DNA of 64,000 nt from Candidatus Woesebacteria bacterium. GTDB taxonomy: Bacteria; Patescibacteriota; Saccharimonadia; Saccharimonadales; EFPC-124. Both the position numbers and the translations under genes were made by a program. Positions 2,030 through 39,159 of this stretch are shown here, piece by piece. The DNA lies in contig JASFQB010000004.1 of assembly GCA_050115675.1 (NCBI GenBank), forward strand, positions 7,601 through 71,600, given 5' to 3'. Under the pieces are notes generated by a model. That model made no database searches. It was given only the letters and a program-made list of their open reading frames with translations, and was not told where the DNA came from. Numbering within the stretch: the stretch's first letter is position 1; every line of letters begins with the position of its first letter.

Positions 2030-2458
2030 TTAGGCGTTCTTTCTTTTTGGCCTTCTGCTTCTAAGCAGCCCAATAAGCTCATCACAGTTAGATTTCAACG
2101 CCCACCCGTTATTCATACATCGCCTAGCCTCATCAGGGCTAATTAATACGACTTTTCCCCTTGGCCAAAAAAGTTCACCAAAAGTGATTTTTACAATTCG
2201 CGGACGAAGCGTCCTTAAAAGTCCACCTCTGACTTGCTCGTCTTCAACGGCAAAACGCAAAGTAGAGCCTTGACTCATTCCTCTGCCCAAAGCGTTGTCA
2301 AATCCTGTCAGTTTAGCGCTTAAACAAAACACTCGACAAGCATCCGAAACCCTATCCACGATAGACAAAGCCGTGCTACTATCAAAATGCCCTGGCCCTA
2401 TAACAGTAACACTTCTAGACAAATGACTAAACGGATAGGCTCTTCTTTCGCTGCTCAT
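2030..2458 (-). CDS. Hypothetical protein (142 aa), antisense to the flanking rpoC/rpsL genes
   Basis: ORF with strong SD (aagggggctattATG on minus strand) and own terminator; no motif recognised. Confidence 0.6.
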   Translation of the reverse strand: MSSERRAYPFSHLSRSVTVIGPGHFDSSTALSIVDRVSDACRVFCLSAKLTGFDNALGRGMSQGSTLRFAVEDEQVRGGLLRTLRPRIVKITFGELFWPRGKVVLISPDEARRCMNNGWALKSNCDELIGLLRSRRPKRKNA

Positions 2459-2573: not shown

Positions 2574-2669
2574 GTATAACGAGTTTCACGGTGATATGAT
2601 TAAGGTGTGGTGCTGACATAAAAACGCCTTTTCATTGAACTAGATTAACTAAAGAGGATTTTTGCTTTA

Positions 2670-3083
2670 ATGCCAACAATCAATCAGCTTATACGCAAGC
2701 CTCGCAAGACGGCTAAAAAACCAAGTAAATCTATTGCACTTGGGCGTATTCATAACACACTAAAAAATAAATACCTACCTATGGGCGCACCTCTAAAAAG
2801 AGGCGTTTGTTTAAAGGTCACTACGCGTACTCCACGTAAGCCAAACTCGGCTATGCGTAAGGTTGCTCGCGTTCGCCTAACAAATGGATATGAAGTTTGG
2901 GCCTACATTGGCGGCGAAGGACACAACCTCCAAGAGCACGCAGTTGTTTTGGTGCGTGGTGGACGCGTGCCCGACTTGCCAGGTGTGCGATATCATATTG
3001 TACGTGGCGCGCTTGACCTTCAGGGCGTTCAAAACCGCAAACAAGGTCGCTCTAAGTACGGCGCTAAAAAGGAGTCTAAGTAA
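2670..3083 (+). CDS. rpsL: 30S ribosomal protein S12
   Basis: [10 protein letters not shown]...[16 protein letters not shown]... classic uS12 sequence. Confidence 0.98.
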
Positions 3084-3559
3084 TGCGTAAAGTTACAAAA
3101 TCTCTACAACGCAAACTCACTCCTGATCGCAAGTATAACAGCATTTTAATTCAGCGCTTGATCAATAAAAGCATGCGTGACGGCAAAAAGCAGATAGCAG
3201 AAAATGCCGTCTACGAAGCTCTAGACATTGCCTGCAAAAAGCTAAAAAGCGATAACGCAGCAGAAGTTTTCGAAAAAGCTATCAAAAATGTTTACCCATC
3301 AGTTGAGGTTAAAAGCCGACGCGTTGGCGGCGCAAACTATCAAATTCCATTCCCAGTGCAGGGCCATAGGCAGCAGCACTTAGCGTTTATGTGGTTTGTA
3401 CAAGCTGCACGCGCACGCAAAGGCATGCCTTATGCTGAGCGTTTGGCAGCAGAAATTGTTGACGCCAACAACCAAGCTGGTGCAGCCTTCAAAAAGAAAG
3501 AAGACACTCACCGAATGGCCGAAGCAAACCGCGCATTTGCGCACTTTGCTCGAGGCTAA
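3083..3559 (+). CDS. rpsG: 30S ribosomal protein S7
   Basis: uS7-like sequence, start overlaps rpsL stop (TAATG), canonical order. Confidence 0.97.
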   Translation: MRKVTKSLQRKLTPDRKYNSILIQRLINKSMRDGKKQIAENAVYEALDIACKKLKSDNAAEVFEKAIKNVYPSVEVKSRRVGGANYQIPFPVQGHRQQHLAFMWFVQAARARKGMPYAERLAAEIVDANNQAGAAFKKKEDTHRMAEANRAFAHFARG

Positions 3560-3579
3560 TCTCAGCAAAAACTGCCACA

Positions 3580-3607
3580 AAAAGCACCCAATACTGGGTG
3601 CTTTTTG
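3580..3607 (+). terminator. Rho-independent terminator after rpsG
   Basis: Stem agcaccca/tgggtgct, loop atac, then TTTT. Confidence 0.7.
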
Positions 3608-3707
3608 TAGTTTCGTGCACATATTTTTACAAATGTATATTTACATATCGTGAAAGTCGGTTTATTGTATATAAGCCAATACGCAAAAACTGATTAGGGA
3701 GAGCAAA

Positions 3708-3833
3708 ATGGCAAACTGCAAAACACCACAGCAGTGCGTATGCAAATGCAAAGAATGCAAACCAACTGACGGCAGCACAATTGCAACACACTGCTGGGAG
3801 CACAGCCGAGGATGTCATAAAGCATGTAAATAA
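3708..3833 (+). CDS. Unannotated 41-aa cysteine/histidine-rich peptide (MANCKTPQQCVCKCKECKPTDGSTIATHCWEHSRGCHKACK)
   Basis: Hand translation; SD agggagag 6-7 nt upstream of ATG; 8 Cys + 3 His; bracketed by two terminators; below the ORF-track length cut-off. Confidence 0.6.
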   Translation: MANCKTPQQCVCKCKECKPTDGSTIATHCWEHSRGCHKACK

Positions 3834-3842
3834 GACCGGCTT

Positions 3843-3880
3843 GCCGCGCGCGTTATATTTTACGCGTGCGGCCTTTTACT
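3843..3880 (+). terminator. Rho-independent terminator after the Cys-rich micro-ORF
   Basis: 11-bp GC-rich stem (gccgcgcgcgt/acgcgtgcggc incl. one G-U) followed by CTTTT. Confidence 0.7.
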
Positions 3881-3979
3881 TAGTCGCCACTGGTAAATTA
3901 TAACTATATCTGCTACAATAAACGACAAACGTCTTTTTGCGTGTCAAAAAGAGAGACAAATAACTATAACGAGGATAAC

Positions 3980-6058
3980 ATGGCAACAATCTCCCTAAAA
4001 CAATTTCGCAACATCGGCATTATTGCCCACATCGACGCAGGTAAAACAACCACAACCGAAGGCATTTTGTACCGCACTGGCCTAAGCCACAAAATTGGCG
4101 CCGTGCACGAAGGCGAAACAACTACCGACTGGATGGAACAAGAGCGTGAACGCGGCATCACCATTACCAGTGCAGCCGTAACTTGCTTTTGGAAAGAGCA
4201 CAAAATCAACATTATCGACACCCCAGGCCACATTGACTTTACAGCCGAGGTAGAGCGTTCTTTGCGCGTTTTAGACGGCGCTGTTGTTGTATTTGACGGC
4301 AAAATGGGAGTAGAGGCCCAAACCGAAACAGTTTGGCGCCAGGCTAACAAGTATAACGTTCCTCGCGTTTGCTTCATCAACAAGATCAACCAAACCGGTG
4401 GTGATTTTTACAAATCACTAGAAAGCATTCACCACCGCCTAAGCAAGCGAGCTTTGCCCATTCACTTGCCAATTGGCTTTGAGCAAGGTGTCTGTGGTGT
4501 CGTAGACCTAGTTAGCATGAAGGCTTACACCTACAAAGAGTTTGCAGATCACGCACTTATCGAAGGCGAAATTCCTGCAGACATGCTAGAAAAAGCTAAA
4601 AACGCACGCACACTGCTTGTCGAAGCTGCTGTAGAGGCAGATGACGCATTATTTGAAAAATATCTAGAAAACGGCGAAGAATCAATTTCTGAAGGCGAAC
4701 TAAAAAGCGCACTACGTAAATCTGTGCTGTCTGGCGAATTTTACATCGTAACTGGCGGTGATGGCCGCGGCGTTATTGTAGAAAAAGTCCTAGACCTTGT
4801 TGTAGACTATCTACCAAGTCCACTTGACGTTGGTTCTGTTTGGGGTACAAATCCAAAAACTGGCGACCAAGTTGAGAGAAAGCCAGAAGATAGCGAAGCT
4901 ATGGCTGCCCTGGCATTTAAAGTTGCAACCGACCCATTTGTTGGTAAGCTTATCTTTGTTCGTGTTTACAGCGGCAAATTAAGCGCAGGTAGCTACATTT
5001 ACAACGCCACAACTGGTAACAAAGAGCGCGTTGGACGCTTGTTGCGTATGCACGCCGACAAACGCGAAGACATTACCGAAATTGGCGCAGGCGACATTGC
5101 TGCAATCGTTGGACTTAAAGACACAACAACCGGCACAACTCTTTGCGACGCAGCCAATCCTATCATACTTGAAAGCATTGACTTCCCTGAGCCACCAGTA
5201 AGCATTGCCATTGAACCAAAAACTAAAGCCGACCAAGAAAAAATGGGTATTGCCCTTCAGAGACTGGCCGAAGAAGACCCAACCTTCCGCGTACGTTCAG
5301 ATGAAGAAACCGGCCAAACAATTATTAGCGGTATGGGCGAACTTCACTTAGAAATCATTGTAGACCGCATGAAGCGAGAATTTAAAGTCGAAGCCAACAT
5401 TGGACAGCCCCAGGTTGCCTATCGAGAAGCAATTAAAAAGCAAGTCGAAATCGAAGGCAAATACATTAAGCAATCTGGTGGTCGCGGTCAATACGGTCAC
5501 GTATGGTTGCGAATTGAGCCAAACGAAACTGGCAAAGGCTTTGAATTCTTTGACGAAATCAAAGGCGGCGTTGTTCCTCAAGAATATCGCAACCCTGTTA
5601 AAAACGGTATCGAAGAGACACTTAAAAACGGTGTCATGGCTGGATACCCAGTAGTTGACGTAAAAGCAACTCTTTACGACGGTAGCTATCACGATGTTGA
5701 CTCAAGCGAAATGGCCTTTAAAATGGCCGGTGCGCTTGCAGCCAAAGAGGGCGTTAAAAAGGCTGCCCCAGTTTTGCTTGAACCAGTAATGAAGGTTGTG
5801 GTTGTGACTCCAGAGGAATTCATGGGTGATGTAATTGGCGGCCTAAATAGCAAACGCGGCCGCATTGAAAGCATGGAGGATTTAGCTGGTGGAACCAAAG
5901 AAATTACTGCGATGGTGCCATTGGCAGAGATGTTTGGCTACACAACAACTCTACGAAGCTCAACTCAAGGCCGAGCAAGCTCAAGTATGGAACTGGCCCA
6001 GTACGAGGAAGTTCCACCAAACGTAGCCGAAGCTGTTATTGCAAAACGCGCTGCCTAA
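3980..6058 (+). CDS. fusA: Elongation factor G
   Basis: [18 protein letters not shown]-domain, full EF-G length (692 aa from ATG 3980, SD gagga upstream; ORF-track start 3941 probably too early). Confidence 0.97.
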
Positions 6059-6159
6059 AGATTGATATTGCAAAGTGTAAAAATGCGACTTTGTTAAACA
6101 AATTAATTAATTACGCTATACTTTTAATGTAAGTCATTAATAAACGAGGGTAATTAATT

Positions 6160-7227
6160 ATGGCAAATAAATCTTTATGTTTAAGTTATCGCAGTTGGTC
6201 TGAATATCAATGGCCAACCACTTTAGATGCAATATACACTGACGGTGGCAGAGTTAATTTACAATACTACAACGTAAGGGACCCGTATTATTGCTACTCG
6301 TACTCATCAACTTGGAGTTCAAAATCTTGGAACGTGGGCGCAACAGGAACACCAGCTACGTCCATTAGAAACAGCGGCAAAGATGTAGGTATATTTTATA
6401 GATCCGGCGTTAAAGGTGAGGCAATATCTTGCATTAGCTGGGATTCTGGATCAACAAAATACGAGGCAGGCTGGTCAGAAAAACCAGAGATAATTGTGTC
6501 ACGCGACGTAGCTTTTGACCCAGGAGCGGTTGGACGCGACTCTACCCACATTGAGCTTGTCTGGACAAGCTCAGCAGGGGCGCTAAAACGTAGAGGCTGG
6601 GATTATGGCGAGGGTGGCTGGATGCCAATTGGCGAAATAATGCACGCCGACATTGTCAGCACCCCAAGCATTGTGTCACGAAACCCTACTTCCATGGACG
6701 GCGTTGCAATAAAAAACAATGGCGACCTTGTTCATTTTTGGTGGGATGTTAAGTATAGCCAGAATAGCGGATGGCAGTGGGAGACGTGGGGAGTAAATGC
6801 AACTGGCAACCCAGCGATTATCAACCCCGACAACGACTCTTACTGCTGCCTTTGCCGCAACGGACAAGGTCAGCTTGTAGTGCATAATTGGTCGAGCATC
6901 TCTGGGCACAGCCAAAAAGTAATCCCGGCAAAAATGAACAGCGACCCTGCGGCACTGTCATTGCGAGGGGCAATATACGTTGTTTATGTAGAAACCAACG
7001 GCGACCTCGTAATTCTACGCACCGACACAGAACAAAAACAAGTACTATTTAAGGGCAATGCACTTGCAAGCACACCACGAATAAGCATTGCTGAACACTC
7101 ACAGTTCCATACATTCACCTACATAATGCCTGAGATAGTTTTCTGGGATAAGAACAGCAAGCTAAGACGAATCAATGTGAATCCACAGATGGCAGTAATT
7201 ACCAGCGAGACCTTACCTTCAGTATAG
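6160..7227 (+). CDS. Hypothetical repeat protein, probable 7-bladed beta-propeller (lectin-like), no signal peptide
   Basis: ~50-aa internal periodicity with recurring [ST]-P...G-L/I-V/I-hydrophobic...W motifs (e.g. NNGDLVHFWWD, GQGQLVVHNW, TNGDLVILRTD). Confidence 0.55.
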   Translation: MANKSLCLSYRSWSEYQWPTTLDAIYTDGGRVNLQYYNVRDPYYCYSYSSTWSSKSWNVGATGTPATSIRNSGKDVGIFYRSGVKGEAISCISWDSGSTKYEAGWSEKPEIIVSRDVAFDPGAVGRDSTHIELVWTSSAGALKRRGWDYGEGGWMPIGEIMHADIVSTPSIVSRNPTSMDGVAIKNNGDLVHFWWDVKYSQNSGWQWETWGVNATGNPAIINPDNDSYCCLCRNGQGQLVVHNWSSISGHSQKVIPAKMNSDPAALSLRGAIYVVYVETNGDLVILRTDTEQKQVLFKGNALASTPRISIAEHSQFHTFTYIMPEIVFWDKNSKLRRINVNPQMAVITSETLPSV

Positions 7228-7317: not shown

Positions 7318-8433
7318 ATGAAAAGCCAACTTCCACAGCCGAATTCCTACATAAAACAGATCGCAACGTACAAGACAGGCCTGTCAACCGGCGAATTGGC
7401 AAGCATGCTCAATAAACCTTTAGATCAAATTGTGCGACTTGCAGCCAACGAAAATCCGCACGGCCCAAGCCCTAAAGTCCAAGAAGTTATTAGAAACTAT
7501 GCAAAAGATATGTCAAGATATCCTGAGGTGCACGTATTACAAAAAGGCATTGCCAATTACCTTAAAGTTGACCCGCGTAGCGTAATCGTTGGCAACGGAT
7601 CTTGCGAAATACTAGAGATAATTGCCCGTGCATTTTTGCAAGTTGGCGATGACTCAATTTTTCCAGAGCAATCTTTTGTTGTATACAAACTGGCTAGCCA
7701 ATACATGGGTGCAAATTGCATATCTATTAAGTCCAAGCCCGGCTATGCAGATGACCTTGACGGCATGCTGGCTGCAATAACACCAAAAACACGCGTGATG
7801 TGGCTTGCTAACATCAACAATCCAACAGGCAATTTTACGTCGTACAAAGAAGTAAAAAAATTCATAAAAAGCATTCCATCAAGAATTGTCATAGTGCTAG
7901 ATGAAGCATATTTTGAGTATCTTGACCCAAAAGAAGTCGAGGACTCACTACAGTGGATTTATGAATTCCCTAATTTAATAGTCACCAGAACATTCTCTAA
8001 AGTTTATGGACTGGCAGGCCTGCGCATTGGCTATGGGGTAGGAGCACCCGTCATAATTGACTCACTACAACAAATGCGTGGCCCATATAACTGCAACAAC
8101 ATGAGCGTTATAGCAGCACTAAAATCACTAGAAGACAAGGACTACGTGAATCTGAGCCGCAAAGCAAATTCTGAAGGCCTAAAGCAGATTACAAAAGGAC
8201 TAGACAGAATTGGTTACAAATATCTGCCCACAAAAGGCAATTTTGTATCCGTAAATGTAGGCAATGCAAGCAAGGTTGCAAAAGCACTAATCAATGAGGG
8301 AATAGTAGTTTTGCCTCTAAACGGCTACAATATGCCAGAATATATAAGAGTAAGCGTTGGACTAAAAAGCGAAAATTCTAAGCTACTTGAGGGATTATTA
8401 AAAATCAAAAGCACTAAAGACTTTACTTTATAA
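7318..8433 (+). CDS. hisC: Histidinol-phosphate/aromatic aminotransferase (class II PLP aminotransferase)
   Basis: [28 protein letters not shown] and [18 protein letters not shown] (PLP-Lys) motifs typical of HisC. Confidence 0.8.
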
Positions 8434-38831: not shown

Positions 38832-38907
38832 GCCGACATAGCTCAGTGGCCAGAGCGGCTGTTTTGTAAACAGCGGGTCGTGGGTTCAAATCCCTCTGTC
38901 GGCTCCA
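38832..38907 (+). tRNA. tRNA-Thr (anticodon TGT), CCA encoded
   Basis: Manual cloverleaf: acceptor gccgaca/tgtcggc, anticodon loop ttTGTaa, T-loop ttcaaat (one U-U in the T-stem). Confidence 0.9.
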
Positions 38908-38911
38908 GTTT

Positions 38912-38997
38912 GCTGGGATAGCGAAGTGGTCAAACGCATCTGACTGTAAATCAGACGACATTAGTCTTCGGGGGTTCGACTCCCTCTCCCAGCACCA
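38912..38997 (+). tRNA. tRNA-Tyr (anticodon GTA), long variable arm, CCA encoded
   Basis: Acceptor gctggga/tcccagc, anticodon loop ctGTAaa, 15-nt variable arm, T-loop ttcgact. Confidence 0.9.
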
Positions 38998-39005
38998 GTA
39001 CAAAC

Positions 39006-39035
39006 ACCAGCATTAAGCTGGTTTTTGTATTTTTT
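39006..39035 (+). terminator. Terminator after the tRNA pair
   Basis: accagc/gctggt hairpin followed by TTTTTGTATTTTTT. Confidence 0.7.
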
Positions 39036-39084
39036 AGACATTTTACATAAAAAATAAGGCTCAAAGGCCATATTTACATAATTT

Positions 39085-39159
39085 TGGAGCCTCGACCGAG
39101 ACTTGAACTCGGGACCCCTTCCTTACCATGAAAGTGCTCTACCGCTGAGCTATCGAGGC
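39085..39159 (-). tRNA. tRNA-Thr (anticodon GGT), CCA encoded
   Basis: Reverse complement folds: acceptor gcctcga/tcgaggc, anticodon loop atGGTaa, T-loop ttcaagt. Confidence 0.9.

Follow-up and report, generated by a model that had tools for sequence, protein, structure and literature searches.

The rpsG-fusA interval and its small open reading frame

The stretch of DNA analyzed here, referred to as the window, covers 64,000 nucleotides and is a chromosome segment of a soil-type Saccharibacterium (TM7, Saccharimonadales) that carries rpoC, rpsL, rpsG, fusA, tuf, and the S10/spc ribosomal operons. Between rpsG and fusA, an ATG-initiated open reading frame (ORF) on the plus strand, at 3708-3833 with the stop codon included, encodes a mini-protein of 41 amino acids (MANCKTPQQCVCKCKECKPTDGSTIATHCWEHSRGCHKACK). 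The ORF is unannotated, and no gene is called between rpsG and fusA in the JGI calls for a contig with identical S7 and EF-G proteins. The product contains eight cysteines (residues 4, 10, 12, 14, 17, 29, 36, and 40) and three histidines (residues 28, 32, and 37), which together make up 27% of its residues, and it is basic, with seven Lys/Arg against three Asp/Glu. The translation given in the initial annotation, its counts of Cys and His, and its Cys spacing of C-x5-C-x-C-x-C-x2-C-x11-C-x6-C-x3-C proved exact.

The ORF is accompanied by signals of its own. The Shine-Dalgarno sequence AGGGAGAG, which the initial annotation had described as good, is located at 3696-3703 (+), 4-6 nt before the ATG (6 nt when measured from the end of GGGAG). 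Some 40 nt ahead of the ATG, positions 3640-3668 (+) read TTTACA-17-TATTGT, a promoter-like site that is a consensus match only. The terminators predicted on either side were also found, each with T-runs. The hairpin terminator of rpsL-rpsG at 3575-3610 (+) is a bidirectional stem-loop of 16 pairs with a T-run on each side, while the putative intrinsic terminator of the mini-protein gene at 3843-3882 (+) consists of a hairpin at 3843-3872 with 11 pairs, nine of them G-C, and a T-run (CTTTTACTT / CTTTTACTTA). These elements fall within a hypervariable islet at 3562-3904, since nucleotide similarity to the closest relative ends at 3561 and restarts at 3905.

Several antisense ORFs cover the mini-protein gene, rather than the single one of 63 aa given in the initial annotation: the ORF list contains one of 63 aa at 3627-3818 (-), one of 43 aa at 3694-3825 (-) that also has eight Cys, and one of 38 aa. 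The stretch is rich in TGCA, which keeps several frames open on both strands, so that composition alone cannot settle whether it is a gene. With a codon-usage model trained on the window's genes, the mini-protein frame scores -2.8 bits (log-odds), compared with +3.4 for frame +1. This unfavorable score is probably due to the rarity of Cys codons, which represent 0.6% of codons in the window's genome, and the same rarity would account for the failure of gene callers to pick up the ORF. The GC3 of the mini-protein gene is 0.44, and its synonymous codon choices resemble those of the window's genes, which argues that the window copy is not a very recent import.

Within the ORF, an inverted repeat formed by 3729-3745 and 3780-3796 (CAGCAGTGCGTATGCAA and TTGCAACACACTGCTG) contributes to an RNA fold with z = -3.0. 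Its 5' arm is altered in the closest relative, where the codons for QQC are replaced by those for DTC, and the repeat is therefore probably incidental. No match at the gathering threshold was obtained over the mini-protein region in Rfam 15; the sub-threshold matches were at chance level and confined to the rpsG terminator hairpin. Elsewhere in the window, Rfam family RF00005 identifies a cluster of three tRNA genes at 38832-39159, two on the plus strand and one on the minus strand.

A homologue in the closest relative

The closest relative found, L081, is a contig of Logan run SRR28814854 that was retrieved through relatives of EF-G. Its EF-G is 98% identical to that of the window at the amino acid level, and the flanking DNA is 88-90% identical at the nucleotide level. 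In a blastn comparison with L081, window positions 2608-3561 and 3905-6287 align, with nothing between them. The rpsG-fusA gap of L081 measures 1.45 kb, and the search for homologues at this junction, proposed in the initial annotation, recovered within it a 42-aa homologue (MASCEKFDTCNCRCDECKPVDGIKNKATHCWDHNKGCHKGCQ; L081:2308-2436; tblastn E = 7e-17) that retains M1, 8/8 Cys, 3/3 His, and W30. The accompanying signals recur as well: the Shine-Dalgarno sequence AGGAGAG lies at the same distance from the ATG as in the window, a promoter-like site, TTTACA-16-TATCAT, occupies the equivalent place, and the position of the window terminator is matched by a hairpin of 13 bp that follows the stop codon. 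With all Cys/His kept and signals of its own, the proposal of an independent translatable unit gained support.

The pattern of substitutions between the two copies points to a protein. The sense frames share 24/42 identical positions (56% identity), and the differences at codon positions 1/2/3 number 9/13/26. At the 11 Cys/His codons, six changes are synonymous and none is non-synonymous in this single pair, in agreement with the expectation of a conserved Cys pattern, and the chance of all 11 Cys/His falling among the identical positions is 4e-4. Because the Nei-Gojobori dS of the peptide pair is saturated (pS > 0.75), ligand and non-ligand counts were used in place of omega. The 29 non-ligand codons give a dN of 0.56, compared with a dS of 0.52-0.64 in rpsL, rpsG, and fusA, whose own omega values between the window and L081 are 0.006-0.04; these dN/dS figures rest on a single pair, as two Saccharibacterial copies were found. 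The comparison shows that selection acts on the protein, almost only at its Cys/His positions. In the frame of the 63-aa antisense ORF, 13/42 positions are identical to L081, and stop codons interrupt another antisense frame, so the sense frame, as initially proposed, is the one preserved. Judged from these comparisons, 3708-3833 (+) is a real protein-coding gene.

Between the mini-protein ORF and fusA, L081 carries a minus-strand gene that has a consensus promoter of its own, and the ORF therefore cannot be a cis-acting leader of fusA there. Both minus-strand orphan genes of the L081 islet have perfect sigma-70 consensus promoters, TTGACA-17-TATAAT (12/12), at 2853-2881 (-) and 2055-2083 (-) of L081.

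An undescribed family of Cys/His mini-proteins

Searches of protein collections with the peptide returned nothing that could place it. The peptide alone had no match among 5.8 billion proteins in a word-indexed search, and an exhaustive phmmer search of 1.84 billion representatives yielded two long repeat proteins, which were rejected as spurious. Such a failure is expected where ORFs of this kind are rarely called as genes. Patterns derived from the two-sequence alignment were too specific and found no match in metagenome or viral collections.

JGI metagenome contigs were then scanned for the C-terminal motif H-C-W-x-H-x3-C-H-x2-C written as degenerate DNA, which matched at least 120 loci. 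Invariance of this motif among the pattern-selected members is imposed by the search, which also required Trp30. Among the matches listed, about 40 ORFs of 36-60 aa also carry the N-terminal motif C-x5-C-x-C-x-C-x2-C, which had not been searched for, separated from the C-terminal motif by a variable 7-20 residues. A profile built from 35 members matches 39/120 among the matches listed; in the 64-kb window it has exactly one match (E = 4e-12), and it has one in L081. An independent view of conservation is offered by 25 by-catch paralogues that were not pattern-selected, in which each of the 11 Cys/His positions is kept in 72-100% of the sequences and W30 in 4/25 only. The family signature derived from these sequences is C-x5-C-x-C-x-C-x2-C-x(7-20)-H-C-x2-H-x3-C-H-x2-C, with the part from H-C onward near the C-terminus of proteins about 36-60 aa in length, and all 11 positions are present in the window ORF. 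More than 60 distinct homologues retain the signature in the sense frame. The family is larger than the sample, given that the scan required Trp30 and at least 120 loci matched. Among the matches listed, most come from soil, rhizosphere, or peat samples.

The family has no counterpart in the collections consulted. The window peptide and nine other members lack a match in Pfam-A (hmmscan, E <= 10), the window peptide has none in NCBIfam, and the family profile has none among PDB sequences at E <= 10. PHROGs v4 gave no match for 8/10 members and weak ones for the other two (E 0.03-0.5), and PADLOC gave no match for the family. A profile search of the 5.8 billion proteins identified just one member that had been called as a gene, P0123 (68 aa). 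A viral scan with a fixed 10-residue linker found 3 loci only, and tblastn with three members against 50,697 deposited phage genomes produced no real match, a result that may owe something to the low-complexity filter. Literature searches yielded no account of such a family, and the sequence family of the mini-protein is undescribed so far. AlphaFold2, run on the two-sequence alignment, gave a pLDDT of 54 and thus no structural support.

Phage neighborhoods and tandem arrays

The metagenomic members do not reside in ribosomal operons. Genes neighboring them match PHROGs for RusA resolvase, primase/helicase, HNH endonuclease, major tail protein, and endolysin. Overlap with the 3' end of RusA is seen for some of the ORFs, which lie upstream of primase within replication modules, and suggests translation as part of the RusA operon. 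On IMG/VR viral contigs, at least seven members are found with a strict motif test and about 11 with the family profile. Taken with the neighboring genes, this membership indicates that the family is probably carried mainly by uncultivated phages, in their replication or accessory modules. The G+C content of member contigs ranges from 45% to 70%, a spread which argues against confinement of the family to a single phage lineage. Comparison of the phage contigs with the other window genes and with the ORFs of the L081 islet found no links.

In several loci the gene is multiplied. Contig L092 (IMGVR_UViG_3300005436_000039, the same contig as L214 and L237) contains ten back-to-back copies on one strand at 3048-4380, which average 34% identity overall and 12% outside the Cys/His columns. 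Further arrays comprise seven copies in L138/L222, at least five in L243, a 166-kb viral contig with 70% G+C, and three in L167. Mean identity between copies of one array is 34-37%, falling to 12-14% once the Cys/His columns are left out.

The rpsG-fusA junction in Saccharibacteria

Among Saccharibacteria, the length of the rpsG-fusA gap varies between 4 nt and about 3.9 kb. The initial annotation considered the mini-protein gene to interrupt the normally co-transcribed rpsL-rpsG-fusA unit, and this holds: some relatives have as little as 4 nt between rpsG and fusA. The gaps of the loci examined (L001-L084 and L240-L242) contain 0-5 unrelated orphan ORFs, which differ by genome, are often on the opposite strand, and have no Pfam, PHROG, or PADLOC match. 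At this junction the mini-protein is present in the window genome and L081 only: the family profile has no match in the other 83 S7/EF-G loci, about 60 of which are Saccharibacterial, and none in three further relatives. Relatives without it at the junction include some whose EF-G is 90% identical. The window copy shares 56% identity with the L081 copy and up to 54% with some phage copies, as would be expected either if drift is very fast or if copies have been exchanged repeatedly with the phage pool.

Other features of the surrounding operon are recorded here in their own right. A 142-aa orphan ORF at 2030-2458 (-), between rpoC and rpsL, is called by JGI. Pfam, PHROGs, and PADLOC offer no match for it, and comparison with the orphan that L084 has between rpsG and fusA revealed no relationship. 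Inserted between fusA and tuf are a 355-aa Trp-rich protein without a Pfam or PHROG match at 6160-7227 (+) and a class I/II aminotransferase at 7318-8433 (+). The 355-aa gene has 79% amino acid identity in L081 and evolves faster by far than its neighbors (dN 0.12), and in L084 its place is taken by a gene of 357 aa, close to it in size. The EF-G encoded at 3980-6058 (P0003) is identical to a protein labelled 'Candidatus Woesebacteria bacterium' at NCBI; since close relatives of S7 and EF-G are all Saccharimonadales, the NCBI label of that metagenome-assembled genome is probably wrong.

Comparison with known Cys/His proteins

The strong purifying selection on Cys and His is what metal ligands would show, and the mini-protein probably binds metal through them. 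With 11 invariant Cys/His in about 40 residues and no room for a signal peptide, metal ligation is favored over disulfides, and 11 ligands, too many for two isolated tetrahedral sites, are consistent with a bridged cluster of 3-4 metals. The initial annotation had compared the peptide with SmtA/BmtA metallothioneins and small zinc-ribbon proteins. As a claim of membership, neither comparison stands: ten members lack a Pfam match at E <= 10 and the motif order and phyletic pattern differ from those of SmtA/BmtA, while zinc-ribbon families gave no Pfam, NCBIfam, or PDB match. Both hold as analogies, in that the mini-protein is small and probably uses Cys and His to bind metal.

The SmtA cluster is Zn4Cys9His2, and the order of its motif is C-x-C-x2-C-x-C. 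The mini-protein resembles SmtA/BmtA (PF02069) in being a small, cytoplasmic protein with conserved Cys and His, CxC motifs, an aromatic residue, 11 potential ligands, and quick drift outside the ligands. It differs in having no profile match (E <= 10), in its composition of eight Cys and three His, in the order C-x-C-x-C-x2-C, and in belonging to a phage-carried family whose arrays consist of diversified copies and not of dosage duplicates. Similarly, dense Cys-X-Cys motifs recall the vertebrate metallothionein beta-domain (Zn3Cys9 in human MT-2A), and window positions 3741-3761 encode CKCKECK, a 7-mer that also occurs in the human MT-2A beta-domain. However, the mini-protein family has three invariant His, a two-part architecture with a variable linker, and no Pfam match, and the shared 7-mer most likely reflects convergence on a motif of low complexity.

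Small zinc-finger and zinc-ribbon proteins such as Mu Com, P2 Ogr, bL36, and ZAS are likewise 40-70 aa in length with a fold dependent on Cys/His-Zn, and some are phage regulators in early or replication modules; H32-x3-C36-x3-C40 of the mini-protein is loosely like the ZAS motif H-x3-C-x2-C. These proteins use four ligands per Zn and paired CxxC knuckles, in contrast to the 11 ligands and one CxxC of the mini-protein, and sequence or profile similarity to small zinc-finger and zinc-ribbon proteins was not detected. The Cys4 ribosomal proteins bL36, bL31, bL32, bL33, and bS14 were rejected as candidates in view of the absence of a Pfam or NCBIfam match, the single CxxC, and the patchy presence of the gene. 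An analogy for the proposed kind of site, which would be one of mechanism, comes from multi-zinc domains, such as the Zn3Cys9 pre-SET and CXC/tesmin domains and Zn2Cys6 Gal4, in which dense C-x-C/C-x2-C motifs with bridging thiolates allow about 9-11 ligands to hold 2-4 metals. Unlike the mini-protein, these domains are eukaryotic, lie within large proteins, and have no His ligands, and there is no detectable homology. Peptide arrays of the RiPP and SCIFF type are also short, Cys-rich ORFs that are often uncalled, sometimes tandem, and hypervariable outside their scaffold, but the mini-protein has no leader, maturase, or exporter, and its His are invariant.

Alternative explanations

Among the functions that a metal-binding peptide could serve, that of a true metallothionein for Zn/Cu/Cd storage or detoxification, analogous to SmtA/BmtA or MymT and acting as a phage auxiliary gene or in host metal homeostasis, deserves consideration but appears unlikely. 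A Cys and His content of 27% with conservation at ligand positions alone, a ligand count of 11 that equals that of SmtA, the CKCKECK shared with MT-2A, and the predominance of soil, rhizosphere, or peat among the matches listed would all suit such a role, and tandem arrays are known for metallothionein genes too. Against this, the ten members searched at E <= 10 match neither prokaryotic nor eukaryotic metallothioneins of Pfam, no member was seen to have a gene for a metal transporter or a metal-sensing regulator beside it, and members occupy phage replication modules, overlapping the RusA end and upstream of primase. The arrays themselves speak in the same direction, as amplification for dosage gives near-identical copies, whereas these copies are 12-14% identical outside the ligands. 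A precursor of a modified or secreted peptide, whether a SCIFF/ranthipeptide-like RiPP, a disulfide-rich toxin, or a bacteriocin, is improbable: the gene is short, Cys-rich, fast-evolving outside the Cys scaffold, and multi-copy in some loci, but no radical-SAM enzyme, cyclodehydratase, protease, or exporter adjoins it in the window, L081, or the phage loci, NCBIfam has no match, and the three invariant His beside Cys (HC, CH) indicate metal ligation rather than disulfides or thioethers. The secreted disulfide-rich peptide suggested by the initial annotation also conflicts with the first Cys at residue 4, as members start 2-15 residues before it and have their first conserved Cys at residue 3-15, so near the N-terminus that neither a leader nor a signal peptide would fit.

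Association with the ribosome, another role proposed at the outset, would make the product a lineage-specific, translation-associated zinc micro-protein of the str operon. Its small size, basic charge, and place between rpsG and fusA would agree with this, and Cys4 zinc binding is found in several small ribosomal proteins. Yet the gene has a promoter-like site of its own and terminators on both sides, is absent at the junction in about 60 other Saccharibacteria, where unrelated orphans occupy the gap, is cut off from fusA by an opposite-strand gene in L081, and matches no ribosomal family of Pfam or NCBIfam; with the other members on phage contigs, this role is very improbable. Slightly less credible still is the reading that the coding frame is incidental, the element being either a small RNA or a Cys-rich leader peptide through which transcription into fusA is attenuated. 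The layout of a promoter-like site, about 200 nt, and a strong terminator invites this reading, as do the fold z of -3.0, the internal inverted repeat, and eight Cys codons directly upstream of the terminator; it is opposed by the absence of an Rfam match at the gathering threshold, the dominance of third-position substitutions against L081 with synonymous changes at Cys/His codons, the loss of the 5' stem arm, and the minus-strand gene before fusA in that contig. What would be expected of an attenuator was not seen, and the leader was rejected, because the Cys codons are dispersed and not consecutive, the downstream gene is fusA, which is unconnected to cysteine supply, and the substitutions are of the protein type. 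Finally, a chance ORF, or an antisense ORF of 63 or 43 aa as the real gene, might be entertained given the TGCA-rich sequence, the several open frames, the eight Cys of the 43-aa antisense ORF, and a codon-usage score that is not positive. The probability of this is close to nil, as it is refuted in practice by the L081 homologue, the family profile, and the frame comparison, in which the sense frame is stop-free and highest in identity (24/42, against 13/42 for the 63-aa frame), and more than 60 distinct homologues retain the sense-frame signature.

Proposed mechanism and significance

The explanation that we favor, and hold with reasonable confidence as a whole, is that 3708-3833 (+) is a real gene with its own signals, that it belongs to a Cys/His family of the phage gene pool, and that its product is likelier to be a zinc-stabilized binder or inhibitor than a metal buffer. 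The eight Cys and three His would hold a small multi-metal cluster, most likely of 2-4 Zn(II), in the reducing cytoplasm, and the two half-motifs, joined by a variable linker, would close around this cluster into a compact knot. The other residues, near-neutral in evolution, would form a variable surface. Such a protein could bind or inhibit a cellular or phage target, as in phage-host conflict. The array paralogues share their ligands only, which makes a binder or inhibitor more likely and bulk metal buffering less so; it is this diversification pattern that the proposed role is drawn from. For the Saccharibacterial copy, this would mean an accessory gene that was acquired from the phage gene pool or is common to both.

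A bolder version can be offered only tentatively and is itself doubtful: the family might constitute a new class of phage zinc-cluster mini-proteins with a hypervariable surface, an array-diversified conflict module serving anti-defense or host takeover, of which one copy was captured by Saccharibacteria. If true, the capture took place in a recombination hot spot of the str operon, which would point to gene flow between soil phages and ultra-small epibionts.

The rpsG-fusA junction of Saccharibacteria emerges as a hypervariable islet that collects orphan genes within an operon that ranks among the most conserved of bacteria. The family found there illustrates that a conserved and widespread small-protein family can be near-absent from databases, with one of more than 60 members represented among 5.8 billion clustered proteins, which is attributable to genes that are short and Cys-rich and hence score poorly with gene finders. 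With its clear-cut signature, its distribution centered on phages, and its recurring arrays of divergent copies, the family is a tangible candidate both for a new metal-cluster fold and for a phage accessory protein of a new type.
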